Shown in pieces: positions 17,643 to 64,000 of a stretch of 64,000 nucleotides of DNA. Each line of letters opens with the position of its first letter. Positions within the stretch are counted from its first letter, which is position 1. The stretch comes from Candidatus Omnitrophota bacterium (lineage in GTDB: Bacteria > Omnitrophota > Gorgyraeia > 2-01-FULL-45-10): the NCBI GenBank assembly GCA_041650935.1, contig JBAZKH010000001.1, forward strand, positions 576,911 to 640,910, in the 5' to 3' direction. A program made the position numbers and the translations under genes. The notes beneath the pieces were generated by a model that was given only the letters and a program-made list of their open reading frames with translations, made no database searches and was not told where the DNA came from.

Positions 17643-17649
17643 TTTACGT

Positions 17650-18045: not shown

Positions 18046-18058
18046 TGCGACGCTCCTT

Positions 18059-38106: not shown

Positions 38107-38112
38107 CTGCGG

Positions 38113-38451: not shown

Positions 38452-38456
38452 TTTAG

Positions 38457-38777
38457 TTAACCTTTCAAATTCTTAAGGTTCCTTACATCGAGAGAATCGG
38501 TGTGTCTGAAGACAGACAGCGCAATGCCTGCGGCCGTGGCCGCGACTACGACTTCTATAATGATGATAGTTATGACCAGGCTCTGGGCCAGCGCGGCGCG
38601 CCCGGTTATATCGCCGACCACGATGATGAGAAGCGTGACGGCCTTTACCAATAACTCGATGCCTATTATGGCGCGGATCATGCTGCGGGTTACGACGAGG
38701 CAATATGCGCCGCAGACAAATAACAGTATGATGAAAAATCCGAACGTGCTAAAGGTCTGCCAATTACCGCTTATCAT
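38457..38777 (-). CDS. NuoK/MrpC/MbhG-like membrane subunit
   Basis: About 107 aa from the internal Met. Three TMs. Conserved Glu in IIIIEVVVAATAAG. Confidence 0.55.
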   Translation of the reverse strand: MISGNWQTFSTFGFFIILLFVCGAYCLVVTRSMIRAIIGIELLVKAVTLLIIVVGDITGRAALAQSLVITIIIIEVVVAATAAGIALSVFRHTDSLDVRNLKNLKG

Positions 38778-39267
38778 TCTTCGTCTCCTCGAATAGCATA
38801 ACCACTCCAAGCGCGCCTGCGATCAGGATCATTACCTGGCCAAGGAGGTCCAGCCTCCTTAAGTCCCACAGCATCGTCCGGACATCGATCGCCGATTCCA
38901 GGGGTTTGGCCATCGCAGGGCCCTGCCCTGCCTTCATACAAACAAGCCCGGCGCCGATAACGACCAGGATGACGGGCAGATACCAGTACCGTTTCATCCT
39001 GTCTTTAGATGCCTGGAGTATCTGGTTATGCGTCAGCGGTTTCGTAAGGCTTATGGTGCTGACAAAGATCGCCGTTATGAGGCCTGCGCAGACGGAGAGT
39101 TCAAAGACCGCGGCAAGCGGTGAATTGAGCCTGAAAATTATTACTGCTATAAGGGCGCTTGTCACGGCTAGCCCTATAGTCGCCTTCAAAAGGCTCCTGG
39201 CCATGACTGTCCATAGCGCCGCTACGGTTGTGAGTATCAAGAGCGCGATATTCATGTCCATATTCAT
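38764..39267 (-). CDS. MnhB/MrpB-like membrane subunit
   Basis: 167 aa, four TMs, glycine-zipper helices. Its position between the antiporter-like and NuoK-like genes is typical of Mrp/Mbh modules. Confidence 0.5.
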   Translation of the reverse strand: MNMDMNIALLILTTVAALWTVMARSLLKATIGLAVTSALIAVIIFRLNSPLAAVFELSVCAGLITAIFVSTISLTKPLTHNQILQASKDRMKRYWYLPVILVVIGAGLVCMKAGQGPAMAKPLESAIDVRTMLWDLRRLDLLGQVMILIAGALGVVMLFEETKNDKR

Positions 39268-39269
39268 AA

Positions 39270-40709: not shown

Positions 40710-40760
40710 TTAATATCCTCTCGTATTAGCAGCCGGCATTTAAATGCCGGCTGCGGCTTT

Positions 40761-44036: not shown

Positions 44037-44046
44037 GGCCTAAATA

Positions 44047-46371: not shown

Positions 46372-46474
46372 TTCATGCTCCTTTTTGAAATTTTTAAAAA
46401 ATAAAGCCCCCTACTTTGCCCTTCCTACCGAAGGAGGCCTTGATTAAGACATCATTGTCTATCGATTTATATCT

Positions 46475-48777: not shown

Positions 48778-48792
48778 TCAATTACTCCGGCA

Positions 48793-50985: not shown

Positions 50986-51097
50986 AATACCCCCTTGTAA
51001 ATATGGAATATCTTACCATGAAACCGGATATAAAAACAGAGACATTCATATAGCGATTGATACGAACGCCTCTTGCGAAATAACCGTAAACCGCTTT

Positions 51098-52774
51098 CTA
51101 CTTATATTTATTCGTTATCGGCATCCTTCTATCTTTGCCGAACGCTTTAGGCGTGATCCTGATGCCCGGAGGAGATTGTCTCCTTTTGTATTCGCTCTTA
51201 TCTACCATTGTCAGGACCCTGGCGACGGCGTCCTTATCAAAACCCATAGCCGCGATCTCGTCATAGGCTTTATCGTCTTCTATGTACTCTTTGAGAATCT
51301 CGTCAAGCAGTTCGTACGGCGGCAATGTATCCTGGTCCTTCTGGTCGGGCTTCAATTCCGCCGTAGGCGGCCTGGCGATCACCGATTCCGGGATTACCCT
51401 GCCCAGGGAGTTTCTATATAAAACCAGCTTATAGACGAGCGTCTTCAGTACATCTTTAATTACAGCGAACCCGCCGGCCATGTCGCCATATAACGTGGCG
51501 TATCCCGTGCTCATTTCGGATTTGTTTCCCGTGGCAAGTACGAGATAACCAAATTTATTCGAAAGAGCCATCAGGAGGCTGCCGCGTATCCGCGCCTGCA
51601 AATTTTCCTCCGCTGTATCCCTGGGCAAGCCGCCGAATTGCTGTTCGAGCGACATGAGGTACAATTTGAATATATGCTCGATAGAAATAATATTAAACTT
51701 GATTCCCAGGTTCGCGGCGACCGCCTTGGCGTCGGCCTCTGATTGAGGCGATGAGTAACGGGTCGGCATAAATACGGTTACGACATTATCTTTTCCCAGA
51801 GCATCTGCGGCAAGGCAGGCCACCAGCGCGGAATCTATGCCGCCGCTCAATCCTATAAGGACTTTTTTGAAACCGTTTTTAAAGACATAGTCCTTAAGAC
51901 CGAGTAAAAGGGCCTGATATATCTCGGCGGTCTCTCCCAATGGCCGGGTCTCTTTTTTAACAACAGGCGGCCTCTGCTTTGGGGCATGATCTTCCGCGAT
52001 GATTATGGCCGTCCGCGGCAGGCCTGGCGCCCCGGCCGCTATCTCCGCGTCGACAACCACCATATCTTCCTTAAACGCGTCTGCCCTTGCAAGCACCCGC
52101 CCGGAGCTGTCAACGACCATGCTCTGTCCGTCAAAGACCAGCTCATCCTGGCCGCCCACAAGATTCGTATAACTGACAACGACGCCGTTTTTCCCGGCCT
52201 GCTTTTTAACTATCTCCTCCCGTTCTTTTACCTTCCCGGCATGGTACGGCGAAGAATTTATATTTATGATAAGTTTTGCCCCTGATTGTGCCTGTGCGCA
52301 AAGCGGCCCTTCGGCATGCCCTGTATCTTCACAGACATTCACCCCGAAGATAATCTCTCCCAGCCTAAAGACGCGGGAATCTTTACCGGGTTTGAAATAA
52401 CGTTTTTCATCGAAGACCCCGTAGTTCGACAATATCTCCTTGCGGCATATGCCCAACACCTTTGCTTTATGTATTACCGCCGCCGCATTATAGATATCTC
52501 CGCCTGCCCTGTCCACGAATCCTACTATTGTCACAATATCGTCGGCCGCTTTCGTGACGCGCTTCAGGGATTCCAGGTTATCTGTTACGAAAGCCTCTTT
52601 AAGCAAAAGGTCTTCCGGCGGATAACCGGTGACGGCAAGCTCGGGGAACGAGACGATGTCGGCCCCGGCATCTTTTGCTTTTCGCAGGTATTCGATTATC
52701 TTCGCGGTGTTCCCGTCGAGATCGCCGACAACGCAGTTAATCTGCGCTATGCATATCCTTACGCTCGTCTTCAT
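51098..52774 (-). CDS. nadE: Glutamine-dependent NAD+ synthetase (nitrilase domain plus NAD synthetase domain)
   Basis: 558 aa. N-terminal CN-hydrolase (RICIAQIN..., catalytic ...NVCED...). C-terminal PP-loop GLSGGIDSAL. Confidence 0.9.
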   Translation of the reverse strand: MKTSVRICIAQINCVVGDLDGNTAKIIEYLRKAKDAGADIVSFPELAVTGYPPEDLLLKEAFVTDNLESLKRVTKAADDIVTIVGFVDRAGGDIYNAAAVIHKAKVLGICRKEILSNYGVFDEKRYFKPGKDSRVFRLGEIIFGVNVCEDTGHAEGPLCAQAQSGAKLIININSSPYHAGKVKEREEIVKKQAGKNGVVVSYTNLVGGQDELVFDGQSMVVDSSGRVLARADAFKEDMVVVDAEIAAGAPGLPRTAIIIAEDHAPKQRPPVVKKETRPLGETAEIYQALLLGLKDYVFKNGFKKVLIGLSGGIDSALVACLAADALGKDNVVTVFMPTRYSSPQSEADAKAVAANLGIKFNIISIEHIFKLYLMSLEQQFGGLPRDTAEENLQARIRGSLLMALSNKFGYLVLATGNKSEMSTGYATLYGDMAGGFAVIKDVLKTLVYKLVLYRNSLGRVIPESVIARPPTAELKPDQKDQDTLPPYELLDEILKEYIEDDKAYDEIAAMGFDKDAVARVLTMVDKSEYKRRQSPPGIRITPKAFGKDRRMPITNKYK

Positions 52775-52786
52775 AAGATATCTCTG

Positions 52787-53503
52787 TCATTTTTTCCGCA
52801 TATTTTCGATCATTATTATGGCCTCGGAGATTTCGCGCATCGATTTGCGCAGGTCCATGCTCTGTTTCTGTATCTTTTTGAAAGCCGCCTCTTCGCCTAT
52901 CGCCTGCTCGCGCATCAATATACCTTTAGCTCTTTCTACAAGTTTACGCGTCTCCAGCTCTTCCTGGACTACTTTTGTCTTGACCATAAGTCCGGCATTT
53001 TCGATAACTATTGCCGCCTGGCTGGCCACGGTTGTAAGAATATTTATCTCATTTCTTGTAAACTTGTGAGGATGGGATGTGTAGTTATTCAATACGCCTA
53101 TCACTTTACCGCGCACCGCAAGCGGCACCGAAAGGAGCGACTTCAAGCCTTCCTTGGCCGCTATATCTTTATATTTATATTCAGGTTCTATGGATAGGTC
53201 GTAGGCGGCCTGCGGGCTATTCCTCTGCGCAACTCTGCCGGCAATGCCTTCGCCGAGCTTTAAGTTCGGTTTTTTATTATAAACTTCGCTCATAGATTGG
53301 GTCGCTTTTAATGCGAGCTCATTAGTCCTGTCGTCGAGAAGCATAAGCGAACATATCTTTGAATCCATTATCTCGGCCGTAACCGTAACTATAAGCTTAA
53401 GGATATCTTCGAGATACAGGTCGGAAGTTATAGACCTGCTTACCTTCGAGAGCGCTTCGAATTGCTTGGCGTGCGAAATCGTTTTTTTATATCTTTTCGG
53501 CAT
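52787..53503 (-). CDS. GAF-ANTAR RNA-binding antitermination regulator
   Basis: 238 aa. N-terminal GAF (SKICSLMLLDDRTNELALKA...GEGIAGRV). C-terminal ANTAR (LVERAKGILMREQAIGEEAAFKKIQKQSMDLRKSMREISEAII). Confidence 0.75.
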   Translation of the reverse strand: MPKRYKKTISHAKQFEALSKVSRSITSDLYLEDILKLIVTVTAEIMDSKICSLMLLDDRTNELALKATQSMSEVYNKKPNLKLGEGIAGRVAQRNSPQAAYDLSIEPEYKYKDIAAKEGLKSLLSVPLAVRGKVIGVLNNYTSHPHKFTRNEINILTTVASQAAIVIENAGLMVKTKVVQEELETRKLVERAKGILMREQAIGEEAAFKKIQKQSMDLRKSMREISEAIIMIENMRKK

Positions 53504-53507
53504 ATGC

Positions 53508-54416
53508 TTAAATCCGCGGTTTGATAATGCGTGTCCCTAAAAAACTGTCGTCCGGTTCGGGGGGCATTTCCTGTATCCAGCCATTATTTAACCCCAATTC
53601 CTTTGCAGCGTCAACTATATTCTTGTACTCGCCGCTCTCGATGCCGGCGGAAAGCTCTTTATAGCCGGCGGCTTTAAAAGTCGGGTAATACTGGCTCATT
53701 ATACTGAGATAGGCGTCCTGCGATATCTCTTTTCTGATGAATTTCATCGTTTCGACCGTTCCGGATATGTTGTGCGGCAGAGCAAGAAGCCTTACGATGA
53801 GCCCTTTCTTCGCCACGCCGGCATCGTCGGCAACCATGTTCCCCACCTGCTCGTACATCTCTTTTACGGCGCGCCTGTTATATCCGACATAATCGGGGGC
53901 CGCCGAGTATTTTGCCGCCATCGCATTATCGGAATAACGCATGTCCGGCAGGTATATATCGACAATCCCTGCCAGCGTTTTTAATGTCTCCACCCGTTCG
54001 TAGCCGTTTGTGTTGTAGACTATCGGAACAGTCAACCCCCCGTCGCGGGCTATTAGAAGCGCGGTAACGATTTGAGGGACAAAATGCGTAGGAGATACAA
54101 GGTTTATATTATGACATCCCAGTTCCTGCAGTTCGAGCATGATGGACGCAAGTTTTTCCGCGGAGACTGCGCCGCCCTTATCGAGCTGGCTGAAGATGTA
54201 GTTTTGGCAATAGACACATTTCATGTTGCAGTAAGAGAAGAAGATGGTTCCGGAACCGCGCTTGCCTGAAATCGGAGGCTCTTCACCGCGGTGGGCCATG
54301 TAACTATAGACTACCGCATTGCAGGGCGCTCTGCAATAGCCCAGTTTGCCCTGCTTTCTTTCGACGCCGCATTTGCGCGGGCATATAACGCACCCGGTCG
54401 TCGTAAGTTCAGCCAT
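53508..54416 (-). CDS. AmmeMemoRadiSam-system-type radical SAM enzyme (PFL-activase-like)
   Basis: 302 aa. N-terminal Cys pairs CVICPRKCGVERKQGKLGYC. Radical-SAM cluster CNMKCVYCQN followed by ...IFSQ. Confidence 0.65.
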   Translation of the reverse strand: MAELTTTGCVICPRKCGVERKQGKLGYCRAPCNAVVYSYMAHRGEEPPISGKRGSGTIFFSYCNMKCVYCQNYIFSQLDKGGAVSAEKLASIMLELQELGCHNINLVSPTHFVPQIVTALLIARDGGLTVPIVYNTNGYERVETLKTLAGIVDIYLPDMRYSDNAMAAKYSAAPDYVGYNRRAVKEMYEQVGNMVADDAGVAKKGLIVRLLALPHNISGTVETMKFIRKEISQDAYLSIMSQYYPTFKAAGYKELSAGIESGEYKNIVDAAKELGLNNGWIQEMPPEPDDSFLGTRIIKPRI

Positions 54417-55128
54417 CCGCTTGATCGGCCCGATGAGTCACGTTTTTGTCTATAAAGTCGATTATCGCGCGTTCCTTCTCTGCGGTCAGATGAGAAAATG
54501 AGATGCCCATCCCCGGATAGGCGTGAGGCTGGAGATCTTTATCGGCTAACCATGAAATCCGGCCGGTGGCTTCGAGAACAGCCGCAGATCCCGGTATGCT
54601 GAAATGGAGGTCCAGGAGTGTGCCCATCGGGAAGGTATGCGGCGTATAGATATATATACCCGCACCGCTTATGTTAAGCACGTTTCCTTCGAAAACTTTG
54701 GCGTTTTTGGTGTCGGCTATCATCTTATACTTTACGATAAGATGGATATCGAGCCGCGGGAATTTTCTGCGCAGGTGTAATTTTTGAGCCTCGCTCTCGC
54801 AAAAACTGTTGATGGCCGTCTCCTCGTCTGTGTAGAGTTCGAACACGGTCTCGAGCTTAACCACCTTGAACATCTCCACTATAGAGACAGGCACGTTAAG
54901 TAATTTTAGCTTTCCTTTATGGTTGACGATATTCTTATACGCTATTGCCAGTATTGAAAGGCCATTGTAGTCCACCATATCCACGTTCTCGAAATTGAAT
55001 ATTATATTCAGCTTGCCGGAATTGACAAGCCATCCGACCATCTCGATGATTTCGGAAGAGTTTATATCGATACGGCCGTCTATATCCAGTATATGGACGT
55101 TATCTTCTTCTCTGAGCCTTATCGGCAT
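54409..55128 (-). CDS. STAS (anti-sigma-antagonist-like) plus PilZ two-domain protein
   Basis: 239 aa. N-terminal SpoIIAA-like STAS. C-terminal PilZ with LRRKFPR (RxxxR) and NVLNISGAGIY (D/NxSxxG). Confidence 0.7.
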   Translation of the reverse strand: MPIRLREEDNVHILDIDGRIDINSSEIIEMVGWLVNSGKLNIIFNFENVDMVDYNGLSILAIAYKNIVNHKGKLKLLNVPVSIVEMFKVVKLETVFELYTDEETAINSFCESEAQKLHLRRKFPRLDIHLIVKYKMIADTKNAKVFEGNVLNISGAGIYIYTPHTFPMGTLLDLHFSIPGSAAVLEATGRISWLADKDLQPHAYPGMGISFSHLTAEKERAIIDFIDKNVTHRADQADG

Positions 55129-55141
55129 AAAGCACCCATCG

Positions 55142-55279
55142 CTACTGCCGGAAGAAGAAAGTATTTATCCCTCTTCCCATCCTATTGACATCTTTACCAA
55201 CGCCCGAGACAGTCTCTCCGCATCCGGTCAGGACTGCAGCTGTTATAAGTATTGCAATCATCAAGGCGGCTCTCTTCAT
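55142..55279 (-). CDS. Entericidin A/B-family small lipoprotein (45 aa), absent from the ORF track
   Basis: Translation MKRAALMIAILITAAVLTGCGETVSGVGKDVNRMGRGINTFFFRQ. Lipobox LTGC. The GC-G-E-T-VSGVGKDV core matches the entericidin C..T.RG.GEDI pattern. AGAGGAAGG Shine-Dalgarno upstream. Confidence 0.65.
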   Translation of the reverse strand: MKRAALMIAILITAAVLTGCGETVSGVGKDVNRMGRGINTFFFRQ

Positions 55280-55297
55280 AATGACCTTCCTCTTTAT

Positions 55298-55335
55298 GGA
55301 AAAAGCCATATCTTATCCAGGATATGGCTTTTTCC
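55298..55335 (-). terminator. Perfect 15-bp stem-loop between the small secreted-protein gene and the entericidin-like gene, a possible terminator or attenuator
   Basis: ggaaaaagccatatc - ttatccag - gatatggctttttcc. The U-rich tract lies within the 3' arm. No clean trailing U-run. Confidence 0.3.
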
Positions 55336-55363
55336 ATTCAAGTGAATACTTGTTTCGCAGGCC

Positions 55364-55732
55364 TTACTGCACCGGCTCTTCTTTATTGGCCTTAACTGGA
55401 ACCGCTACCGTACCCTCCACAGCTTTTTTTGCCGTATCGGCTGTCCCGACTATAGGCTCGGTCACCAGATCTTTGGTCTTGCCAAGGCTGCCGGAGGTAA
55501 CCTGTCCAACCGTCTTTACTTCGTTCGTCACTACGCTAGTTGCGCTTTTCGCGGTATCCGTAACCACGCCCGCTGTTTCGTTCGTCACATTGGCGGGATA
55601 ATTAAAAAGTTTCTGCCAGAAACTTTTTGCGCTCTTATCGGCACTCTTCCCTTCAGCAGCATAAGAGATACCGCTTAGTATAAAGCATAATGCCAGAACA
55701 ACACATGCAACCACTGCCAGTTTCTTTCCCAT
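55364..55732 (-). CDS. Small secreted repeat protein (hypothetical)
   Basis: 122 aa. Signal peptide. Thr/Val/Lys-rich imperfect repeats (TxxTAKxA..VTNE). Confidence 0.4.
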   Translation of the reverse strand: MGKKLAVVACVVLALCFILSGISYAAEGKSADKSAKSFWQKLFNYPANVTNETAGVVTDTAKSATSVVTNEVKTVGQVTSGSLGKTKDLVTEPIVGTADTAKKAVEGTVAVPVKANKEEPVQ

Positions 55733-55803
55733 TGTACTCCCCCTTTCTTAAGGTAAAAGTTTACTATATGTTACGCGAATTGGCAAGCGAAATCTCGCTT
55801 GCG

Positions 55804-56259
55804 TCACTTGAGCAACCCCTGGACAAGTCTGTTTATCACCTTGCCGTCGGCCTTGCCCTTGGCCTTTTCCATGACAACTTTCATTACTTTCCCCGTATCC
55901 GGCTTAGCAACAGCTCCCGTTTCGGAGATAGCGGCTTTGATAATAACCGTCAATTCCTCTTCCGAAAGCTGTTTTGGAAGGTATCCTTCGAGTATCCTGA
56001 GCTCCGCCGTTTCTTTCTCGGCAAGATCGGCTCTCGCGCCTTTTGTGAACTGTTCGATAGATTCGCGATGCTGTTTAACCTGCCGCTGTAATATCTGGAT
56101 CGTATTGTCGTCATCCAGCACTTTGATATTCTTCTCTATCTGCAAAGTCTTCATTACAGACAATGCCATTCGCAGGACAGATAGCTTCAAACGATCGCCG
56201 GTCTTCAAAGCTGCCCTGGCGTCACTGTTGAGTTTTTCATACAAATTCATAAAAAACAC
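55804..56259 (-). CDS. GatB/YqeY domain protein
   Basis: 151 aa. KTGDRLKLSVLRMALSVMKTLQIEK matches the YqeY N-terminus. Confidence 0.7.
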   Translation of the reverse strand: MFFMNLYEKLNSDARAALKTGDRLKLSVLRMALSVMKTLQIEKNIKVLDDDNTIQILQRQVKQHRESIEQFTKGARADLAEKETAELRILEGYLPKQLSEEELTVIIKAAISETGAVAKPDTGKVMKVVMEKAKGKADGKVINRLVQGLLK

Positions 56260-56317
56260 TTCCCCCTTATCATTATCGAAAATGACAGTTTTTAAACAGG
56301 CGGGTCGTAACTAGCCT

Positions 56318-56521
56318 TTAGGATAATTTAACGACTTTTGTCGCTTGTTCGCCCTTAGGACCCTGGACGATCTCAAACTGTACTTTATCGCCTTCCTTGA
56401 GGGTTTTGTAACCTTCACCTTCGATAGCCGAATGGTGAACGAATACATCTTTGCCTGTATCTGCCACTATGAAACCAAAACCCTTCTTATCATTGAACCA
56501 CTTTACCGTCCCCTGCGCCAT
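56318..56521 (-). CDS. cspA: Cold-shock protein (CspA family)
   Basis: 67 aa. [15 protein letters not shown] (RNP1) and VFVHHSAI (RNP2). A 5' UTR of about 200 nt (56522-56720) is typical for csp. Confidence 0.9.
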
Positions 56522-56720
56522 CTAAATTTTCACCTCCTTGCCAAGCATTTACAGCTAAAAATCCTTCGACAGGCTCAGGATTTATACCGAGCGCCAGTCG
56601 AGGCAAAAAAATACCACCTTCAGCCTTTTAAGGCCGGGTGGCATTATATGTTTAAGAGGTTTTCACTAACTCATTCACCGCAATATTGTTACAAAAATAT
56701 ACCACATTACTCTCTATTTG

Positions 56721-57230
56721 TCAAGTTCTCTTCCTTAATTCTCTCTTTCTTACTTTTGTACCGATTTTTCGCTTTAAGAGCAGTTTTTTAATAGGGTTTA
56801 AATAATCTATGATCAATACGCCGGTTAAATGGTCTATTTCATGCTGTAGCGCCCTGGCCAGAAGCCCGTCTGCGCATAATCGCCTGGCATTGCCCTCCTC
56901 ATCCAGAAAATTAACAATGACCATCCTGGCCCTTTTAACCTTGACGTTTACACCGGGCAGGCTAAGACAGCCCTCTTCCAGGACCTCCGATCCTTCCCGC
57001 TTTGCGATAACAGGGTTTATAAGCTTGATGAGCCCAGTGCCCACATCGATTACCGCGAGCTGTTTGGATACCCCGACCTGTGAAGCCGCAAGGCCAACGC
57101 CCTGCGCGAGATACATTATCCTGGCCATCTCATTAAGGAGATCTTTTTCGCAAGGAGTGATTTTTCCGACTTTTGCGGCCTTCTTTCGCAGTGCCGGATC
57201 CGGGAATTTCTTTATAGTTACTTCATCCAT
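56721..57230 (-). CDS. def: Peptide deformylase
   Basis: 169 aa. GVGLAASQVG, EGCLSLPG and HEIDHLTG motifs. Confidence 0.9.
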   Translation of the reverse strand: MDEVTIKKFPDPALRKKAAKVGKITPCEKDLLNEMARIMYLAQGVGLAASQVGVSKQLAVIDVGTGLIKLINPVIAKREGSEVLEEGCLSLPGVNVKVKRARMVIVNFLDEEGNARRLCADGLLARALQHEIDHLTGVLIIDYLNPIKKLLLKRKIGTKVRKRELRKRT

Positions 57231-57585
57231 GATAATTAATTACGGGCTGGTTTTTCGAATTGACCCTGATAACCTTCATCTTAAGCGTTCTCGCCTTTCG
57301 ATCTTCCAGGAGAGCATTGGAAAGGATTATGACGAGATCCCCCACCTTTCCCATGTGTGCCGCGGCGCCGTACAGGCCTATATGTCCGGATCCGGCGGCC
57401 TCTTCGATGGCATATGTCTCAAAGCGTGAGCCGTTATTGATATTTACCACCTGCACTATCTCGCCGGGATATATATCAGCCAGCTTAAGCAGATTTTTAT
57501 CGATCCCCATACTCCCGTCATAGTGAAGGTCCGACTTGGTTATCCTGACACGATGAATTTTCGATTTACACATTACTCGCAGCAT
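57223..57585 (-). CDS. panD: Aspartate 1-decarboxylase
   Basis: 120 aa. MLRVMCKSKIHRVRITKSDLHYDGSMGID, with the self-processing Gly-Ser. Confidence 0.9.
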   Translation of the reverse strand: MLRVMCKSKIHRVRITKSDLHYDGSMGIDKNLLKLADIYPGEIVQVVNINNGSRFETYAIEEAAGSGHIGLYGAAAHMGKVGDLVIILSNALLEDRKARTLKMKVIRVNSKNQPVINYHG

Positions 57586-57609
57586 GGAACTCCGTGGGCT
57601 TGCGCCCCT

Positions 57610-57972
57610 TTACTCGCCTATTTCGGTGAGATTATTTCCGTCAAAATATAACCTCTTTGTATTTGAAAGGTAACCGGCGTCTACGGGTATATTGCCGTAT
57701 TGCGCGCGGTATATCCACACTTCCCTCTCCCCGCGCCACTTCTCTTTATCTTCCGCTATCTTTATCTGGCTGGGTTTGCCCCATATTGCCTCTACCTGCT
57801 GTTTCGTCATCCCTATTTTTATGGACTCGGTGCCAAGAGGATGTTTAACAACTTCTTCGGGATTAGGTATGATTATTGCGGAACAGCCGGTGAGAATAAG
57901 TCCGGCACCCAACAGCATGACAAAGATCGCACCATACATGCCCGCGGTTTTATCGTTTTTTAGCTTTTGCAT
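57610..57972 (-). CDS. BamE/SmpA-OmlA-like lipoprotein
   Basis: 120 aa. Lipobox LTGC. GMTKQQVEAIWGKPSQ matches the BamE core. Confidence 0.5.
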   Translation of the reverse strand: MQKLKNDKTAGMYGAIFVMLLGAGLILTGCSAIIIPNPEEVVKHPLGTESIKIGMTKQQVEAIWGKPSQIKIAEDKEKWRGEREVWIYRAQYGNIPVDAGYLSNTKRLYFDGNNLTEIGE

Positions 57973-58354
57973 CTTTAGCGTCCTCCGGTAAATTATATAT
58001 TAAGTCGCATAGAAACTTCAAAAACGTATTTTTGTTATCCTCTTCGATTTCAAGGAGTTCCATTCCAACATCGAACGGCGCATTATCTTCCAGGGACAAT
58101 TTCTTTTTCCACATGATCTTGCCTGTGGCATGGACGGGACTTAGCACATTCTGCATATCAAGCCGCATCTCGAGTATGTCGCCTTCTTTGACCATTTTAT
58201 CCGCAGTCTGAAATCTCAAGCCTTCGGCCGATATATCTTTAGCGGTAACAGCATATACCTTATCGCGCTCCGCTATCGTATATGTGACGTTTATAGGTTC
58301 ACGCATACGGATAAAACTACGTCTTTCAACAAGCTTGTCTCGAACCTTTGCCAT
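57950..58354 (-). CDS. PilZ domain protein (c-di-GMP effector)
   Basis: 134 aa. RRSFIRM (RxxxR) and DISAEGLRF (DxSxxG). Confidence 0.7.
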   Translation of the reverse strand: MAKVRDKLVERRSFIRMREPINVTYTIAERDKVYAVTAKDISAEGLRFQTADKMVKEGDILEMRLDMQNVLSPVHATGKIMWKKKLSLEDNAPFDVGMELLEIEEDNKNTFLKFLCDLIYNLPEDAKDAKAKKR

Positions 58355-58421
58355 AGGTCTGGCTCCTTTTTTTCGAATCGTCGCTTAAATATAACACACA
58401 ACTATTTTGCGGTCAACGAAA

Positions 58422-60128
58422 TTACTGTTTATTTAACCGGATATCTTCCGGCCCGGCAAGCTCTGCGGTATTAAGATTGAGCCAGTCTCTTATTGCGGCT
58501 AACGCCTCCCTGTCAACGAGATAGCGCATCCTGGAAGATCCGTCACAGCCCAGCTTGCCGAAAAAGTTCCCAAGCGTTTCAAAGTATATTATCGAATGTT
58601 TCATCTTTCCATAGGCAGCCAATGCCTTATCGAAATGGACGATATACGCGGTAGGCGCTTGCGTCTCTTTCCTGCCGTGTAATATTGCTATCGGCGCGGA
58701 AATTTTTGCCATAGCCTGCGCCGGATCGATTGCGTCCAGGTTTCTTGCGGCCTTCAAATAACATTTTTTACCCAGTATGTAACCCCAATCACGGCCAGTC
58801 TTATTGGCCTTGTCATACGTCTCCTGCAGGGCCCGCATAGCGGTTTTAAGATACTCTTCATTCCACTTTTCCAGAGCGGCCCTGTCGCGCAATAGGGTCT
58901 CCCGTTCCTTCAGGCCCGCATTCATTATCGGAGACATGAGCACAAGGCCTTTAATATCCGCATTCTGCGCGGCAAGTCTCATGGCGCTAAGCGCTCCTTC
59001 GGCATGGGATATAACCGCAATCCTGTTTGCATTCACCTCATTCTGCGATTTAAGGAAACTGACGGCGCTTGCCAGGTCCGCCAGATCATCATCCGGAGCG
59101 GCTGTAGCGGCATCGCCGCCGCTTAAACCGACCCCTCTCCTGTCGAATCTCAATACGCAATAACCGTACCTGGGCAGATAACTTGCGATCGACTCGAAGA
59201 GGCCCTGATAACTCCGGTCGTGCGGCCCGGAGCCCCAGATCAGCAGGACTGCCGGATGTTTTCCGGCCGGATTGGTTTGCGATGAAGTGTCTTTGGGCAC
59301 CGTAAACGTTCCGGAGAGCTGACCGGCTTTGCCCGGGAATACCACATCTTTCGACAGGTATTCTTCTGCGGTAACTGACGGCTCCCTGGGCTTGAGCTCT
59401 TTTGGCTCAAAACCGCGGGTTATTTTTAACCCTATCGATGGTATATCTATCATTATAAGCGTCCTGTCCGACTTGGCTACCCAGACGCTGCCGGGCGGCA
59501 TCGATTTTATCTTCAATAAGAGCATCTCGGTCTTTATCTTCCTGCGCCCTATCTTTATATACTCATCTCTCACGGATGTCAGCGTTACGAAGCGTCTTAA
59601 AGGAGGGGTCTGGCTGTCCGGGAGATATATGATGGAATTAAAACCCTGCGCGCCGCCAAGTTTAAAATCATAGTTCTCGATTATGGGTAGATATGTAAGC
59701 GGAGAGCTCTCTTCAAAAATAAATGCGCCTCTCCTGACCGGCACATTACTGATAAAAGTAAACTGGGATGTAAGCCTGGACATAAACGAAACGGAAGCAT
59801 CGTTAGCTTCGGCATAATATAAGTGCGATGCGCCGTTTGCGAAAAGCTCTTTCTGATACTCCAGGAGGTTGTATCTTCTGTCCAGGTCAAGCCTTGAGCG
59901 CTCGTCGGTAAATAGCTCCCTGAACGGCATTGCCGAGGCAGACTTGTATATCAACCTCTCTTCGGTCACGTACTTGTCTATCTTAGCCGTTCCGGCATAT
60001 TGTCCTTCTATGGCAATGTTATAATAAAAAGTCTTGTGGTTATACTTATCGAGATATACGAAAGAGAATATGAAAAGAAGCAGGCTGGCAATGAATACTA
60101 AAAGTACGGTAATATATATCTTTTTCAT
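58422..60128 (-). CDS. Membrane-anchored alpha/beta-hydrolase-fold protein (putative)
   Basis: 568 aa. N-terminal TM. C-terminal half has an alpha/beta-hydrolase-like layout (HPAVLLIWGSGPHD, ...RIAVISHAEGA..., ILHG). The nucleophile motif is non-canonical. Confidence 0.4.
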   Translation of the reverse strand: MKKIYITVLLVFIASLLLFIFSFVYLDKYNHKTFYYNIAIEGQYAGTAKIDKYVTEERLIYKSASAMPFRELFTDERSRLDLDRRYNLLEYQKELFANGASHLYYAEANDASVSFMSRLTSQFTFISNVPVRRGAFIFEESSPLTYLPIIENYDFKLGGAQGFNSIIYLPDSQTPPLRRFVTLTSVRDEYIKIGRRKIKTEMLLLKIKSMPPGSVWVAKSDRTLIMIDIPSIGLKITRGFEPKELKPREPSVTAEEYLSKDVVFPGKAGQLSGTFTVPKDTSSQTNPAGKHPAVLLIWGSGPHDRSYQGLFESIASYLPRYGYCVLRFDRRGVGLSGGDAATAAPDDDLADLASAVSFLKSQNEVNANRIAVISHAEGALSAMRLAAQNADIKGLVLMSPIMNAGLKERETLLRDRAALEKWNEEYLKTAMRALQETYDKANKTGRDWGYILGKKCYLKAARNLDAIDPAQAMAKISAPIAILHGRKETQAPTAYIVHFDKALAAYGKMKHSIIYFETLGNFFGKLGCDGSSRMRYLVDREALAAIRDWLNLNTAELAGPEDIRLNKQ

Positions 60129-60289
60129 CTCGTCTTAAGTTCTCCCATGAGATGCCGATAGGATGACTCCAGCTCCCTGTTCTTTATCTCCAGGTACACA
60201 ACATAACTGACGAGCGTTAAGACCAGGACGATCATAAGCACCAGGCTGGAGACGAGCGCGACTATAATACTCTTCTTTTTTATTATCAT
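60125..60289 (-). CDS. 54-aa single-pass membrane mini-protein, translationally coupled to the downstream hydrolase gene
   Basis: MIIKKKSIIVALVSSLVLMIVLVLTLVSYVVYLEIKNRELESSYRHLMGELKTR. Its TGA stop overlaps the hydrolase ATG (ATGA). Confidence 0.3.
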   Translation of the reverse strand: MIIKKKSIIVALVSSLVLMIVLVLTLVSYVVYLEIKNRELESSYRHLMGELKTR

Positions 60290-60304
60290 TCACACTTCCT
60301 TTAA

Positions 60305-60829
60305 CTAGGCCCTTATCCGCGTCTTGTAACGCTCTCTCATGTCGTTGAATATGCTAAGGTATTCTTTTGTCCTGTAATCCGGGTAGGTCCATGGCCAGGG
60401 ATTGAAGGTGTTCCCCCGGTAAAATAACGTAATCTCACAAAATATGCCTTTATTAAGATATACCCTGTGCGAATAGTCCTTTGTAGAAAATAGCGCCACC
60501 TTCGACAGGCTAAGATAGCCCGGGTCGATATTGACGGCCCTATTCGCACCCTTGGCCAGGAGTCTTTCCAGTCTATTTGTCTTAAGCTTGACCGCATATA
60601 TGCCATCTAGGCCGCGCAAGCGTTCAAAACCCAGGAATCTGCGTTTTAACGCCAGGCCCATCTCGCCGGCATAATAGGATGTATGCGTGAAGTCCATCGG
60701 TTCGCTTTCGAAATCTATCTTACCGAATATCCTGACGAGGGCGCCGCGCGCCGCAGAATATATTTCCTGATGCTGAAATAGCAGGCCCGTAATAAGCTTG
60801 ACCTTTTCAGGGCGTCTGGGGATGCCCAT
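60305..60829 (-). CDS. Hypothetical protein, possibly DUF4416 family
   Basis: 174 aa. KVKLITGLLF...FGKIDFESEPMDFTHTSYYAGEMG resembles DUF4416 as recalled from memory. Confidence 0.35.
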   Translation of the reverse strand: MGIPRRPEKVKLITGLLFQHQEIYSAARGALVRIFGKIDFESEPMDFTHTSYYAGEMGLALKRRFLGFERLRGLDGIYAVKLKTNRLERLLAKGANRAVNIDPGYLSLSKVALFSTKDYSHRVYLNKGIFCEITLFYRGNTFNPWPWTYPDYRTKEYLSIFNDMRERYKTRIRA

Positions 60830-60839
60830 AAGCTTAGCC

Positions 60840-61334
60840 TTAGCTTTCCTGATCCAGCGAACATGAACGTATAAAATTGATAAAATTTAGGCTGGCGGGA
60901 TCTTTTGTTGAAGAAAATTTTATCCCTGAGTAAAAAAAACGCTTACCGGTCGGGTCCGCGGCATCCGCGGCATCTTCGGTCCATACCACATTGCCGAGCA
61001 TTTCTGCTTCCGGCAGCGATCCCGGGAGAGCTATCTTCAGAGTGACGCATGCACCGAGAGGTAATTTTTCGGCTAGAAGCAGTCTCACTCCCCCTTCGGA
61101 GATATCCACGGTCTTTCCGCCGGCAATCTCTGCCGCGCGCTTTTTTATGATCGAATAGGCTACTTCAAGAGAACGCGTGAAACGCGGGTAATGCCTGCGG
61201 TTCACGCCGTCCCAGCATTCCTTGATCTTCGCATAACGCAGGACGTTTCTTATGGCTTGGCCGTCTACCTTGAAGAGCATATAAAGGATGGCCGCCAGCA
61301 GAAATATTAGTAGAAGTCCAATGTATGTCAACAC
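60840..61334 (-). CDS. Membrane-anchored PilZ domain protein
   Basis: 164 aa. N-terminal TM. RRHYPRF (RxxxR). DISEGGVRL (DxSxGG). Confidence 0.7.
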   Translation of the reverse strand: MLTYIGLLLIFLLAAILYMLFKVDGQAIRNVLRYAKIKECWDGVNRRHYPRFTRSLEVAYSIIKKRAAEIAGGKTVDISEGGVRLLLAEKLPLGACVTLKIALPGSLPEAEMLGNVVWTEDAADAADPTGKRFFYSGIKFSSTKDPASLNFINFIRSCSLDQES

Positions 61335-61705
61335 GCCTCTTCGCCTCTTTTTTTGCTCGATACGTAAATTTTGATTATTTCCCTGTCTTTGCTCGAAAGG
61401 TTATCAAAAAATATGGCGGCATCATAATGCCTGATAACGCCGTCGATTATTACAGGGTGTTCCCGGACTATCACACCGTCGACATCCAGTTCCCTGACAG
61501 CCCCATCGGCCTTAAAAAGGTCCGGTACCATAAGCTTGACCCTGACCCTGGACATAATAGGTATCTCTTTATCTATCTTGCAGTATAAACCTGATGCGCT
61601 TACATCCAGGGTATGAGTTACGGTGTCGAAATCGTCCGTCTTTAGTTTTAACGACAACCCTTCGTCTCTCACCCTGGGAAACAATCTTCTTTCTGTGGCA
61701 GCCAT
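61328..61705 (-). CDS. PilZ domain protein
   Basis: Start taken at MAATERRLFPRVR (after the HIT gene stop at 61725). RxxxR plus DVSASGLY. Confidence 0.65.
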   Translation of the reverse strand: MAATERRLFPRVRDEGLSLKLKTDDFDTVTHTLDVSASGLYCKIDKEIPIMSRVRVKLMVPDLFKADGAVRELDVDGVIVREHPVIIDGVIRHYDAAIFFDNLSSKDREIIKIYVSSKKRGEEAC

Positions 61706-61724
61706 TTTTATACCCTCTCTATAT

Positions 61725-62075
61725 TCAGCCCGGGGGCCATGAAAATTTCCGGCCGCCCAAAAGATGCAGATGCAGGTGGAAGACCGCCTGTCCCGCATCC
61801 CGATTACAATTCATAACGATTCTGTAGCCCGACTCCTGCACGCCCTTCCGGCTTGCTATATCTTTTGCTGCCAGTATAAGGCGACCCACCAGCTCGATAT
61901 GCCGTTCCGACAGTCCTGAGATCTTCTCGATATGTTCCTTGGGAATCAGCAATACATGGACCGGCGCTTGCGGATTCACATCCTCGAACGCCAACACGCT
62001 GGAATCCTCCAGGACAATCTTTGAGGGGATCTCCTTCCTGGCTATTCTGCAGAAAAGACAATCTTGCTTTTCCAT
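61725..62075 (-). CDS. HIT (histidine triad) family protein
   Basis: 116 aa. DCLFCRI. HLHLHLLGG (HxHxHxx). Confidence 0.85.
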   Translation of the reverse strand: MEKQDCLFCRIARKEIPSKIVLEDSSVLAFEDVNPQAPVHVLLIPKEHIEKISGLSERHIELVGRLILAAKDIASRKGVQESGYRIVMNCNRDAGQAVFHLHLHLLGGRKFSWPPG

Positions 62076-62097
62076 AGTTTGAGATCATTTTACATCT

Positions 62098-62676
62098 TCA
62101 GCCGCGACTTTTCAAGTCTTTTGCGCAAGCGCCGTATCGGCCGATGTATTTACCCAGGCTCCAATATTCACCCTGATTAAAAACAAGCGGAGCGGCCTTG
62201 GCGTAGTCTATCCGATCCTTTGGAGTGAGTATCTCCTTATTGGCATGGACAAGCGCCGCCTCACCGATAAACATGTCGTGCGAGCCCAGTGAAATCACAT
62301 CCTTCAGCCTGCACTCTATATTGACAGGACATTCTGCTATAAGCGGCGATGAAACCTTACGGGATGGGAGAGCTGTAAATGCGCAGGCTTTGAATTTATC
62401 GATATCCCTGCCGGAGCGGACACCGCAGAAATCAACCTCTTTCAGCATGGAAGCCGCAGGAATGTTTATGACAAAATCGCCCGTGACACCGATAAGTCCA
62501 TGAGAGTATCTCGACGGCCTTATGGAAACACTTAGGAGCGCCGGCGCCGAACAGACGACACCGCACCACGCAACCGTCATGACATTCGGTCTTTGCGCCG
62601 GCTTGTCCATAACGCTGACAAGGGCGACCGGGAGCGGAAATAATGCGGTTTCAGGCGGAAATTCCTTCTTGGGCAT
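62098..62676 (-). CDS. Flavin-reductase-like (flavoredoxin) FMN-binding domain protein
   Basis: Start taken at MPKKEFPP. ...LVSVMDKPAQRPNVMTVAWCGVVCSAPALLSVSIRPSRYSHGLI is the flavin reductase-like domain core. Confidence 0.65.
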   Translation of the reverse strand: MPKKEFPPETALFPLPVALVSVMDKPAQRPNVMTVAWCGVVCSAPALLSVSIRPSRYSHGLIGVTGDFVINIPAASMLKEVDFCGVRSGRDIDKFKACAFTALPSRKVSSPLIAECPVNIECRLKDVISLGSHDMFIGEAALVHANKEILTPKDRIDYAKAAPLVFNQGEYWSLGKYIGRYGACAKDLKSRG

Positions 62677-62686
62677 TGCGCAGATA

Positions 62687-62995
62687 TTATGCGGCGGGAG
62701 CCGGAGCTTCCGGGGTCTCATCTTTCTTTGAAGCCTTCTGCCAGCACCTTTTTGTGCAATAGTATTTACCGGCGCGATAATACCAGCGTTTCTTCTTTAT
62801 CGATTTATTGCAAACGACACAGTTGGCCGGTTTCTCTATTTTCGGTTCTTCTTTCTTCTTGGCGTCTGCCGGTTTCACTGCCTCTGCCGCGGCTTTAACC
62901 TCCGGCGCGGCCGGTTTCGGTTCCGGCGGTTTTTGTTCTACCGGCTTTGCCGCTTCAACCTGAGGTTTTGCCTCTTCTTTTTTCTCTTCTGCCAT
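62687..62995 (-). CDS. Lys/Glu/Pro/Ala-rich low-complexity protein with a C-terminal CxxC...CxxxC zinc-ribbon-like motif
   Basis: 102 aa. N-terminal 70 aa are KPxxE/A repeats. C-terminal CVVCNKSIKKKRWYYRAGKYYCTKRC. Confidence 0.4.
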   Translation of the reverse strand: MAEEKKEEAKPQVEAAKPVEQKPPEPKPAAPEVKAAAEAVKPADAKKKEEPKIEKPANCVVCNKSIKKKRWYYRAGKYYCTKRCWQKASKKDETPEAPAPAA

Positions 62996-63019
62996 ATCTT
63001 CCTTTACGTGTAATATTTC

Positions 63020-63370
63020 CTATTGCCTGTCGAGCAGTTTCAACCACTGCGTATATATATATTCCAGTAATCTGCCTTTATCCGAATTTTCTATTTTTTT
63101 GAATTTGAGCCCGGTCTCATATCTATCCGACCCTGCTTGCTCTTTCTGCCACGCTACTTCGCATGAAGCAAAGATAGGAACGTTATCGCCCGGCACGTCC
63201 ATAGTCAAATTGATCTCGGTGCCTTGCCTTAATTTCTTATCGGCGACGATCAGGGCCCCGTCTTTTGACAGATTCTTTACCCTGCATTGGGCTTTGGATC
63301 TGTCGTGCACAAAATCACAAAGCGCGCTTAACGCCGTATCGAACCGTAAAAATCTTCTTCGCTCGGTCAC
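63020..63370 (-). CDS. PilZ domain protein (GTG start)
   Basis: 116 aa. ERRRFLRF (RxxxR). NLSKDGALI (D/NxSxxG). Confidence 0.7.
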   Translation of the reverse strand: MTERRRFLRFDTALSALCDFVHDRSKAQCRVKNLSKDGALIVADKKLRQGTEINLTMDVPGDNVPIFASCEVAWQKEQAGSDRYETGLKFKKIENSDKGRLLEYIYTQWLKLLDRQ

Positions 63371-63462: not shown

Positions 63463-63798
63463 TTATTTGCCTTTAGCAAACACAAATTCTGGCTCTAGAA
63501 CCGGTGTATAGCCTTCCGGTATTGGGAACGGGAAAGTCACTGTCTCATAAACGCCAGCGCCTGTCCTTACTATGGTCATCCCAACGCCCTTCGCTAATCC
63601 GATTGTAATGCCAGAGAGAGGATTATCTTCTACACTGGTGTCATATATGTTTTTAGGAAGCTCAATCCACCCTGTGACTATATTGGCAACTCCTCTGTAG
63701 AGCTTTTTGCCCATATCCTGAGCATAGCTCGCTGTTGCTATATTGACGATCATTAATACAGCAACACATATAATAATACCCTTTAATAGATTCTTCAT
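63463..63798 (-). CDS. Small secreted protein, exosortase-system-associated TIGR04073-like
   Basis: 111 aa. Signal peptide. KLYRGVANIVTGWIELPKNI...GVGMTIVRTGAGVYETVTFPFP matches the family pattern as recalled. AGGAGGTGA Shine-Dalgarno. Confidence 0.5.
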   Translation of the reverse strand: MKNLLKGIIICVAVLMIVNIATASYAQDMGKKLYRGVANIVTGWIELPKNIYDTSVEDNPLSGITIGLAKGVGMTIVRTGAGVYETVTFPFPIPEGYTPVLEPEFVFAKGK

Positions 63799-63866: not shown

Positions 63867-63885
63867 GGTGTTGAGGCATCAAAAC

Positions 63886-64000
63886 TACTTATTTTTCTGC
63901 GATACCAGGATATCTTCCACCACTTCCGTGACTTTCTCCCTGTCCTCCGGCCTAATATCGATAAACTCTATGCCTGTATCATAGAGCGGCGCGCTCTTTT
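63886..64000 (-). CDS. 3' end of an unidentified gene (partial, continues beyond the window)
   Basis: Open frame ending ...KSAPLYDTGIEFIDIRPEDREKVTEVVEDILVSQKNK* with the stop at 63886-63888. No domain assignable. Confidence 0.3.

Follow-up and report, generated by a model that had tools for sequence, protein, structure and literature searches.

A conserved six-gene PilZ cluster in Candidatus Omnitrophota and a STAS-PilZ fusion with a predicted c-di-GMP-gated switch

Results

Six PilZ-domain genes in one gene string

Omnitrophota is a widespread uncultured phylum of very small cells that are possibly predatory or host-dependent. We analysed a stretch of 64,000 nucleotides (nt) from a Candidatus Omnitrophota bacterium (assembly GCA_041650935.1, contig JBAZKH010000001.1, positions 576,911 to 640,910 of the forward strand), here called the window, in which a string of genes encodes several proteins with PilZ domains, the receptor domain of cyclic di-guanosine monophosphate (c-di-GMP), one of them fused to a STAS domain. 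Every gene from 51 to 64 kb of the window lies on the minus strand (Table 1), and the intergenic spacing along the string is −23 to +92 nt, with a sole exception of 199 nt before the cold-shock gene csp. An initial annotation of the window had reported five PilZ proteins in different architectures within 9 kb. When the five open reading frames (ORFs) were scanned with the Pfam PilZ profile (PF07238, gathering score 22.5 bits), all of them exceeded the gathering score, and in an alignment of the five complete PilZ domains the RRxxxR and D/NxSxxG signatures stood in register in each (5/5). The architectures were confirmed as well, namely STAS-PilZ by the STAS profile PF01740, a transmembrane (TM) PilZ protein (PilZ_C) by its N-terminal 21-residue hydrophobic helix (LTYIGLLLIFLLAAILYMLF), and three stand-alone proteins by their PilZ scores. 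The start of PilZ_D is more likely M32 than the first codon of the longest ORF, since independent gene calls and the lengths of orthologues concur on it.

A sixth PilZ gene, PilZ_F, was found at the end of the window, where 63885-63998 of the minus strand encodes 37 C-terminal residues. This fragment matches a 121-amino-acid (aa) PilZ protein of a sister contig (L002 9549-9914) at 25 of 32 residues, including 19 of 19 in the core; over its full length that orthologue reached 53.4 bits with the Pfam PilZ profile. A PilZ gene occupies the same position in L002, L010 and L013. With a hidden Markov model (HMM) built from the five complete domains, no further PilZ was detected in the remaining 54 kb of the window. 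The block is therefore composed of four stand-alone PilZ proteins, one membrane-anchored PilZ protein and one PilZ domain fused to STAS. Some of these genes overlap a neighbour: PilZ_D and PilZ_C by 7 nt, the end of PilZ_B and the start of the BamE-like lipoprotein gene by 23 nt, and the STAS-PilZ stop and the radical SAM gene by 8 nt.

The six paralogues share only 17-26% pairwise identity. By a hypergeometric estimate, the expected number of runs of 22 consecutive genes with at least six PilZ genes is below 0.02 per genome, except if the genome had about 60 PilZ genes per 1500 genes. The density of PilZ genes, which the initial annotation had called unusual, is thus real and non-random, clustering by chance being unlikely, and it is conserved across Omnitrophota species, as described below. 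Two simpler accounts of the cluster were rejected. Recent tandem duplication does not fit paralogues at 17-26% identity when orthologues are 50-89% identical, and degenerate, non-binding PilZ domains of the Xanthomonas PilZ type were ruled out by the intact, conserved motifs.

Conservation of the block in Omnitrophota

Related loci were scanned in one genome per species (33 loci), with the ORFs labelled by BLAST against the window proteins and by the PilZ HMM. Where STAS-PilZ was 57-89% identical to that of the window, the whole gene order was retained. It runs from PilZ_F through the TIGR04073 gene, PilZ_E, the zinc-ribbon gene, flavin reductase, HIT, PilZ_D, PilZ_C and DUF4416 to the gene of a 54-aa TM protein (TM54), the hydrolase, PilZ_B, the BamE-like gene, panD, def, csp and yqeY, and then to hyp122, the lipoprotein gene, STAS-PilZ, radical SAM, GAF-ANTAR and NadE. 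In L028 and L030, where STAS-PilZ is 47-48% identical, 5-6 PilZ genes still lie within 8-10 kb. The loci L034, L035 and L038 (35-38%) are rearranged and keep an opposite-strand compact unit of PilZ_E, a 47-aa zinc-ribbon gene, PilZ_D, DUF4416 and radical SAM, the last three of them contiguous, at a distance of 4-6 kb from STAS-PilZ, which in L035 and L038 additionally has a PilZ_F-like gene downstream. Despite extensive rearrangement, PilZ_E, PilZ_D, the PilZ_F-like gene and STAS-PilZ are found within 6.5-8 kb in the distant lineages. DUF4416 is linked to PilZ_D near and far, while the radical SAM gene adjoins STAS-PilZ in the window and comes after DUF4416 in the distant lineages. Since the flavin reductase and HIT genes are both missing from the compact PilZ_E-zinc-ribbon-PilZ_D block of the distant loci, we judged them to be outside the signalling set. 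On a smaller scale, the pair of TM54 and hydrolase is syntenic in L009, L010, L013, L021 and L030, the overlap of PilZ_B and the BamE-like gene is kept in L002, L010 and L013, and hyp122 and the 55-aa lipoprotein gene are kept beside STAS-PilZ where STAS-PilZ is at least 52% identical.

Two further arrangements were seen at the borders of the PilZ genes. A distant clade has a gene for a zf-HC2 membrane protein (anti-sigma-like, about 29 bits) followed by UppP/BacA and then STAS-PilZ (L031 8939-10720, L035 8958-10717), with UppP and STAS-PilZ overlapping in ATGA. Immediately upstream of PilZ_F in sister species, and divergent from it, lies an ExeA/GspB-like gene pair (L002 7973-9428, minus strand), whose products are an AAA_22 ATPase (92.6 bits) and a T2SSB-like protein that stayed below its cut-off (24.4 bits).

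The orthologues retain both binding motifs almost without exception. Both were present in 10/10 orthologues of PilZ_E and in eight orthologues of PilZ_C, and D/NxSxxG was present in 19/19 orthologues of PilZ_B; the exception is PilZ_F of the sister species, where the motif reads NIGAGG (Ser to Gly) in 3/5 orthologues. Because the paralogues are only 17-26% identical and each keeps its position and motifs across species, the cluster is ancient and not a recent amplification. Overall, the sequences indicate an ancient, conserved receptor hotspot under purifying selection.

Such conservation could also be inherited synteny only, with independent receptors sitting in a slowly rearranging housekeeping block and their proximity carrying no functional meaning. 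The unrelated housekeeping functions of the interleaved genes and the age of the paralogues agree with this explanation, as do the flanking NadE, GlnIII and H+-PPase genes, which are equally syntenic, and three loci (L018, L031 and L036) in which STAS-PilZ has no other PilZ gene within 20 kb. However, six PilZ genes in 22 would be rare under random placement, and four PilZ types stay within 6.5-8 kb after rearrangement, in L035 beside a GGDEF gene. In addition, the overlaps of PilZ_D with PilZ_C, of PilZ_B with the BamE-like gene and of STAS-PilZ with the radical SAM gene suggest co-translation units. We therefore regard synteny without function as rather unlikely, while giving it real weight.

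A STAS-PilZ fusion with tyrosine at the phosphorylation site

The STAS domain that the initial annotation had placed in the ORF at 54409 was borne out by Pfam (PF01740, 42.3 bits against a cut-off of 22.6) and by a SpoIIAA/RsbV-like fold. In a sequence search of the Protein Data Bank, residues 3-108 aligned with SpoIIAA, TM1442 and RsbV, and the query segment VDYNGLS was aligned to MDSSGLG, which places Tyr54 at the position of the phosphorylated Ser58 of SpoIIAA. Tyr54 was invariant in 45/45 family members (32-88% identity), as were D53, G56, S58, R120, R121, R125 and G157, and N152 and S154 were conserved in at least 90% of the 45. In an AlphaFold2 (AF2) model with a predicted local distance difference test (pLDDT) score of 81.9, the STAS domain (residues 1-110) exceeded 90 and the linker (residues 114-126), which contains RRKFPR, fell below 50. 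Tyr54 lies at the N-terminus of helix 54-69, and the PilZ half consists of strands within residues 130-212 followed by a helix (216-237). Using Foldseek, the closest structures to the STAS half were SpoIIAA, RsbV and TM1442 (1th8, 1thn_B, 6m36, 1vc1; target TM-score, i.e. template modelling score, 0.78-0.86, and 0.81-0.86 for 1thn_B, 1vc1 and 6m36), with RsbS and a SulP-type STAS also among the matches. The PilZ half matched the Alg44 PilZ domain, 4xrn and other c-di-GMP-bound PilZ structures. Proteins of the YcgR/MotI/PP4397 type were also among the fold matches. No solved structure covering both STAS and PilZ was returned by Foldseek.

The initial annotation had further suggested that the fusion feeds c-di-GMP into a partner-switching module. 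The protein scored below the cut-offs of both antagonist models (TIGR00377, anti-sigma-factor antagonist, 40.5 bits against 53.45; TIGR02886, SpoIIAA, 32.3 bits against 114.75). The search for a partner kinase that had been proposed likewise yielded nothing: neither an RsbW/SpoIIAB-type (HATPase_c_2) kinase nor a PP2C/SpoIIE phosphatase is encoded anywhere in the 64-kb window or, at the 33 related loci, closer than about 10 kb to STAS-PilZ. With an invariant tyrosine in place of the phospho-serine and no RsbW-type kinase in the vicinity, canonical phospho-driven partner switching by STAS-PilZ is not supported.

A STAS domain without a phosphorylatable residue is common outside the SpoIIAA clade, and the domain might instead be a ligand-binding or oligomerisation module of the SulP, MlaB or stressosome-like kind and not a partner-binding switch, which would imply that c-di-GMP is integrated with a second small molecule or that a higher-order complex is formed. 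The RsbS and SulP-type STAS structures among the fold matches point this way, as do the envelope-related neighbours of the gene, lipoproteins in the clade of the window and UppP in the distant clade. Yet the top-ranking matches in sequence and fold were to single-domain antagonists rather than to MlaB or SulP STAS, and no transporter or Mla genes adjoin STAS-PilZ in the Omnitrophota loci examined, so that we find this explanation doubtful.

In a first homologue search, STAS-PilZ retrieved 281 clusters at 90% identity. All full-length proteins among the 120 listed were STAS plus PilZ, about 237 aa long with few truncated or longer, and those that were named all came from Omnitrophota/Omnitrophica. 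When a member with 35% identity served as the seed of a second search, a further 103 clusters were obtained, which were from Omnitrophota wherever named.

Serine-type STAS-PilZ relatives

When 1.84 billion representative proteins were searched exhaustively with a profile, 34 clusters (50% identity) were found at E ≤ 1e-30, headed by the Omnitrophota family in full-length and truncated forms. Below these came a second tier of full-length STAS plus PilZ proteins of 229-245 aa, with E between 1e-19 and 1e-30. These distant proteins (P0258, P0266, P0286, P0312 and others) share only 20-26% identity with the window protein, keep the canonical serine (SSSG, DSQG, DSSG or DSFG) and retain RxxxR and xxSxxG, while three Omnitrophota sequences in the same alignment read D-Y-x-G. 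The fusion is therefore not unique to the Omnitrophota family, since serine-type STAS-PilZ proteins exist, at least one of them in a partner-switch context: at L043 (925-2098), P0258 is encoded 20 nt downstream of a 143-aa HATPase_c_2 kinase (80.8 bits), and from its sequence this locus is a candidate for a true switch driven by c-di-GMP plus phosphorylation. Homologues of this kinase elsewhere adjoin an Mla operon, not STAS-PilZ. At three other serine-type loci no identified kinase stands beside STAS-PilZ, and at L042, a fourth serine-type locus, most neighbours had no Pfam match. The serine-type gene of L044 adjoins BacA. As judged from the alignment, the Omnitrophota family is a STAS-PilZ variant that lost the phospho-site.

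The relatives bear directly on the possibility that the window protein is after all a classical phospho-driven anti-sigma-factor antagonist, whose kinase and phosphatase are encoded elsewhere and for which c-di-GMP is a second input. The kinase beside P0258 shows that a serine-type fusion can have such a neighbour, the fold is nearest to SpoIIAA, RsbV and TM1442, the residues framing the phospho-site keep the D-x-x-G-x-S scaffold, and two distant Omnitrophota loci have a gene for an anti-sigma-like zf-HC2 membrane protein two genes upstream of STAS-PilZ. Nevertheless, the phospho-acceptor position is an invariant tyrosine in the 45 members, TIGR00377 was not reached, HATPase_c_2 and SpoIIE genes are lacking from the window and from the 33 loci, and zf-HC2 anti-sigma factors are no partner-switch kinases. 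Taken together, we consider a classical switch in Omnitrophota improbable.

c-di-GMP turnover enzymes and other receptors

The statement of the initial annotation that the window holds no GGDEF, EAL or HD-GYP gene was correct for every sizeable ORF of the 64 kb, but relatives carry such genes beside the block. In the sister species L002, a GAF-HD-GYP gene (L002 1-1145) ends about 8.4 kb upstream of PilZ_F and has intact HDAG and HHENYDGSGYP motifs, so the product is likely a c-di-GMP phosphodiesterase; the equivalent position in the genome of the window would be just past the window end. In L035, a REC-PAS-GGDEF gene (12206-13402, plus strand; GGDEF 76.4 bits) is directly downstream of the PilZ_F-like gene, and its active-site motif is GDDEF, not GGDEF or GGEEF. 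Because an HD-GYP gene and a GGDEF gene flank the block in these relatives, the absence of turnover enzymes reflects the boundaries of the window and not the neighbourhood.

Outside the block, the window encodes a YajQ/DUF520 protein (8195-8695, minus strand; Pfam DUF520 196.8 bits). It scored 191.8 bits against a cut-off of 146 with NCBIfam NF003819, the "YajQ family cyclic di-GMP-binding protein" model, and by this match it is possibly a seventh c-di-GMP receptor in the window, unrelated to PilZ. No Rfam family, c-di-GMP riboswitches included, reached its gathering score in the window, and a promoter/terminator consensus scan gave generic matches only, which were not relied upon.

Genes between the PilZ genes

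The PilZ genes had been described as interleaved with envelope- and secretion-related small proteins. Small envelope proteins are indeed present, but this framing was one-sided, as the genes between the PilZ genes serve mainly housekeeping functions (panD, def, csp, yqeY, HIT, flavin reductase). The TIGR04073-like protein was verified at 104.9 bits against the NCBIfam cut-off of 50; it is 90-100% identical in sister species and belongs to a family of exosortase-system-associated small proteins. The BamE-like protein is a lipoprotein, with its lipobox LTGC, while its assignment to BamE is marginal (PF04355, 23.5 bits against 23.2, with profile positions 10-36 of 71 matched), and the OsmE model gave 25.3 bits against a cut-off of 65. 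Likewise, the entericidin-like protein is a small lipobox lipoprotein but fell below every entericidin cut-off (Pfam 15.8 bits against 23.3; NCBIfam EcnA 22.6 against 86 and EcnB 19.7 against 94), and this 55-aa protein is a generic small lipoprotein. The 568-aa hydrolase had weak matches to exosortase-associated hydrolase models. Literature searches on DUF4416 yielded nothing.

Three PilZ genes are paired with a gene for a small exported protein, namely PilZ_F with TIGR04073, PilZ_B with the BamE-like gene and STAS-PilZ with the lipoprotein gene, and in other species a TIGR04073-like gene pairs with PilZ_B. This pairing offers a weak hint of envelope-related outputs. In L019-L025 and L028, the hydrolase gene and PilZ_B are separated by a second TIGR04073-like gene (for example L021 5176-5556), and PilZ genes thus recur in pairs with genes for small secreted proteins of the TIGR04073 type.

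The zinc-ribbon gene is always found between PilZ_E and PilZ_D (in the window at 62687-62995, in L035 at 17705-17848, both on the minus strand). The zinc-ribbon profile matches of the window protein were sub-threshold only. In the lineage of the window it gained a tail of about 55 residues rich in Lys, Pro and Ala, which resembles the histone-H1-like tails of bacterial nucleoid proteins.

Table 1. Genes of the PilZ block and segments of the STAS-PilZ protein in the window
Feature	Coordinates	Strand	Evidence and remarks
PilZ_F 3' end (last 37 codons and stop)	63885..64000	minus	Cut by window end
TIGR04073-family small secreted protein	63463..63798	minus	NCBIfam TIGR04073; N-terminal signal-like helix
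PilZ_E, stand-alone PilZ, 116 aa	63020..63370	minus	Pfam PilZ 60.3 bits; RRRFLR, NLSKDG
CxxC...CxxxC zinc-ribbon protein, 102 aa	62687..62995	minus	Lys/Pro/Ala-rich N-terminal tail
Flavin reductase	62098-62676	minus	Pfam Flavin_Reduct 109.2 bits
HIT/HinT hydrolase	61725-62075	minus	Pfam HIT 94.8 bits
PilZ_D, stand-alone PilZ, 125 aa from M32	61328..61705	minus	Pfam PilZ 27.3 bits; RRLFPR, DVSASG; longest ORF reaches 61798
PilZ_C, membrane-anchored PilZ, 164 aa	60840..61334	minus	Pfam PilZ 44.6 bits (residues 45-141) after one N-terminal TM helix; RRHYPR, DISEGG
DUF4416 protein	60305..60829	minus	Pfam DUF4416 193.4 bits
TM54, 54-aa TM protein	60125-60289	minus	4-nt overlap with hydrolase gene
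Membrane-anchored alpha/beta hydrolase, 568 aa	58422-60128	minus	Pfam Hydrolase_4 52.3 bits
PilZ_B, stand-alone PilZ, 134 aa	57950..58354	minus	Pfam PilZ 48.8 bits; RRSFIR, DISAEG
BamE/OsmE-like lipoprotein, 120 aa	57610..57972	minus	Lipobox LTGC
panD	57223-57585	minus	Precomputed Pfam assignment
def	56721-57230	minus	Precomputed Pfam assignment
Cold-shock protein (csp)	56318-56521	minus	Precomputed Pfam assignment
yqeY	55804-56259	minus	YqeY 154.9 bits
hyp122, signal-peptide protein, 122 aa	55364-55732	minus	
Lipobox lipoprotein, 55 aa	55142-55309	minus	13 nt upstream of STAS-PilZ
STAS-PilZ fusion, 239 aa	54409..55128	minus	Pfam STAS and PilZ (PilZ 44.6 bits); RRKFPR, NISGAG
STAS domain, residues 1-110	54799-55128	minus	
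Tyr54 at canonical phospho-site	54967-54969	minus	
RRKFPR, residues 120-125	54754-54771	minus	In flexible linker
PilZ barrel and C-terminal helix, residues 129-237	54418-54744	minus	
Radical SAM protein, activase-like type, 302 aa	53508..54416	minus	Pfam Radical_SAM 38.6 bits

Other genes of the window

Directly downstream of the radical SAM gene, a nitrogen-related string with conserved synteny in most relatives (46789-53503, minus strand) encodes a GAF-ANTAR RNA-binding regulator and then NAD synthetase, a type III glutamine synthetase and an amino-acid permease. The region 35000-46400 (minus strand) encodes an Mbh/Mrp-type membrane-bound [NiFe] hydrogenase-like complex with NuoH/B/C/D-like subunits, three antiporter-like subunits and a HycI protease, and adjoins genes for an H+-pyrophosphatase and an F-type ATP synthase operon. 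At 14229-19330 (minus strand) lie genes for a PAS-HisKA-HATPase histidine kinase, a stand-alone receiver, a 286-aa protein without a family, a HEAT-repeat protein and a membrane glycosyltransferase of family 2 (GT2), the last resembling PgaC/IcaA and an XrtG-associated glycosyltransferase only below cut-off. This is possibly an exopolysaccharide synthase module, without a PilZ protein of its own. Finally, at 3577-5895 a 405-aa plus-strand protein with only a partial and far sub-threshold likeness to anti-phage ProA (78 bits against 1500) adjoins a homologue of the omptin-family outer-membrane proteases (47.6 bits).

Discussion

The explanation that we favour, and hold to be probable, is that the locus is a conserved c-di-GMP receptor hotspot of six diverged PilZ adaptors, in which STAS-PilZ is gated by c-di-GMP and not by phosphorylation. 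Stand-alone PilZ adaptors work by c-di-GMP-dependent binding of partner proteins. Each PilZ protein of the block is predicted from its motifs to bind c-di-GMP, with the RRxxxR arm and D/NxSxxG strand holding the ligand, and each may then, like the characterised stand-alone proteins, serve as a separate adaptor on its own partner, so that a single cellular c-di-GMP signal would be passed on to several outputs, of which some probably concern the envelope. In STAS-PilZ, c-di-GMP would clamp the RRxxxR of the linker onto the PilZ barrel, as in proteins of the YcgR/MotI type, and this clamping would reposition the SpoIIAA-like STAS domain and alter the accessibility of its surface. Most likely c-di-GMP, replacing phosphorylation as the input, decides whether the STAS face can bind a partner, given the invariant tyrosine at the phospho-site and the lack of a kinase or phosphatase nearby. 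A c-di-GMP-gated STAS adaptor is our best inference for this protein.

Several points weigh against this explanation. All functional steps are deduced from the motifs and by comparison with PilZ proteins already characterised, and the predicted template modelling (pTM) score of the AF2 model, 0.48, leaves the domain orientation undefined. The hotspot claim is based on a hypergeometric bound, and other small pilZ clusters have been reported in Omnitrophota (bioRxiv 10.1101/2023.11.21.568195), so that PilZ genes could just be common throughout the phylum. The intervening genes are heterogeneous and no partner is identifiable among them, and the arrangement could be synteny without functional coupling. 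Besides the three loci in which STAS-PilZ stands without other PilZ genes, its immediate neighbours vary by clade, being the lipoprotein and radical SAM genes in the clade of the window, and UppP and a cyclophilin-like or lipoprotein gene in another. A partner kinase of STAS-PilZ could also be encoded elsewhere in the genome. A bolder reading, in which a SpoIIAA-type switch protein lost its phospho-serine, gained a C-terminal PilZ domain, is flipped by c-di-GMP in place of a kinase/phosphatase pair and acts as the hub of a phylum-wide six-PilZ set for envelope or attachment functions in these ultra-small, possibly host-dependent bacteria, is speculative and in our estimate unlikely.

The PilZ proteins of the window are ordinary members of a well-known family. 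What is new is the conserved six-receptor block in Omnitrophota, for which the only related report that we found is the preprint on giant-gene pilZ loci, the tyrosine-type STAS-PilZ family and, by analogy, the direction of signal flow, in which c-di-GMP would act upstream of a STAS switch. Literature searches on c-di-GMP in Omnitrophota gave only that preprint and a ComFB note, and no treatment of a STAS-PilZ fusion was found in the open-access literature searched. Six intact, conserved receptors make a concrete set of proteins and suggest that Omnitrophota have many c-di-GMP outputs, and the tyrosine-type and serine-type fusions offer a natural comparison for the rewiring of a phospho-switch to a nucleotide second messenger. 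If c-di-GMP does gate the STAS domain, the fusion represents both a new class of PilZ output and a new class of input to a STAS switch; if not, the locus is a well-conserved cluster of ordinary PilZ adaptors.

Among known systems, the giant-gene pilZ loci come from Omnitrophota as well. Small pilZ homologues, one or several clustered, lie downstream of giant genes in Omnitrophota (bioRxiv 10.1101/2023.11.21.568195), and they share with our block the phylum and the clustering of small pilZ genes. They differ in being defined by a giant gene and carbohydrate-uptake genes; neither the window nor the upstream stretch of about 9.5 kb in the sister contigs contains a giant gene. In their build, the stand-alone proteins of the block are single-domain proteins like other PilZ adaptors, for which MapZ/PA4608 is the reference structure in Galperin & Chou (bioRxiv 10.1101/814665), with a length of about 115-135 aa, an N-terminal RxxxR arm and the D/NxSxxG strand, and presumably with a barrel of six strands followed by a C-terminal helix. 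Here, in contrast, six receptors lie in about 10 kb as a set conserved across a candidate phylum, and none of the PilZ genes in the window adjoins a flagellar, pilus or polysaccharide-synthase gene.

With proteins of the YcgR/MotI/PP4397 type, STAS-PilZ shares an RxxxR motif in the linker between an N-terminal domain and a C-terminal PilZ barrel, where binding of the ligand can reorient the two domains (Galperin & Chou, bioRxiv 10.1101/814665). The N-terminal domain differs, since it is STAS here and not the PilZ-derived PilZN/xPilZ. The PilZ fusions listed in the same work are with PilZN, REC, GGDEF, EAL, HD-GYP, MCP, CheC and HlyD, and STAS is not in that list. Like SpoIIAA, RsbV and TM1442, the protein has a STAS fold and a D-x-x-G-L/x-S scaffold that starts the phospho-site helix, but unlike them it has an invariant tyrosine for serine, a PilZ fusion and no adjacent kinase or PP2C phosphatase. 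In Streptomyces, c-di-GMP directly controls a sigma/anti-sigma interaction through RsiG-sigma(WhiG) (PMC13232838), and there the anti-sigma factor is neither PilZ nor STAS, unlike STAS-PilZ. Partner switching is also wired to c-di-GMP in the HsbR-HsbA-HsbD (PMC5085249) and SiaABCD (PMC8457831) systems of Pseudomonas aeruginosa, in both of which a phospho-switch stands upstream and controls a diguanylate cyclase. An antagonist-type switch protein is connected to c-di-GMP signalling in these systems as in ours, but the order would be reversed in Omnitrophota, where, in one polypeptide that has no phospho-site, c-di-GMP would act upstream of the STAS domain.

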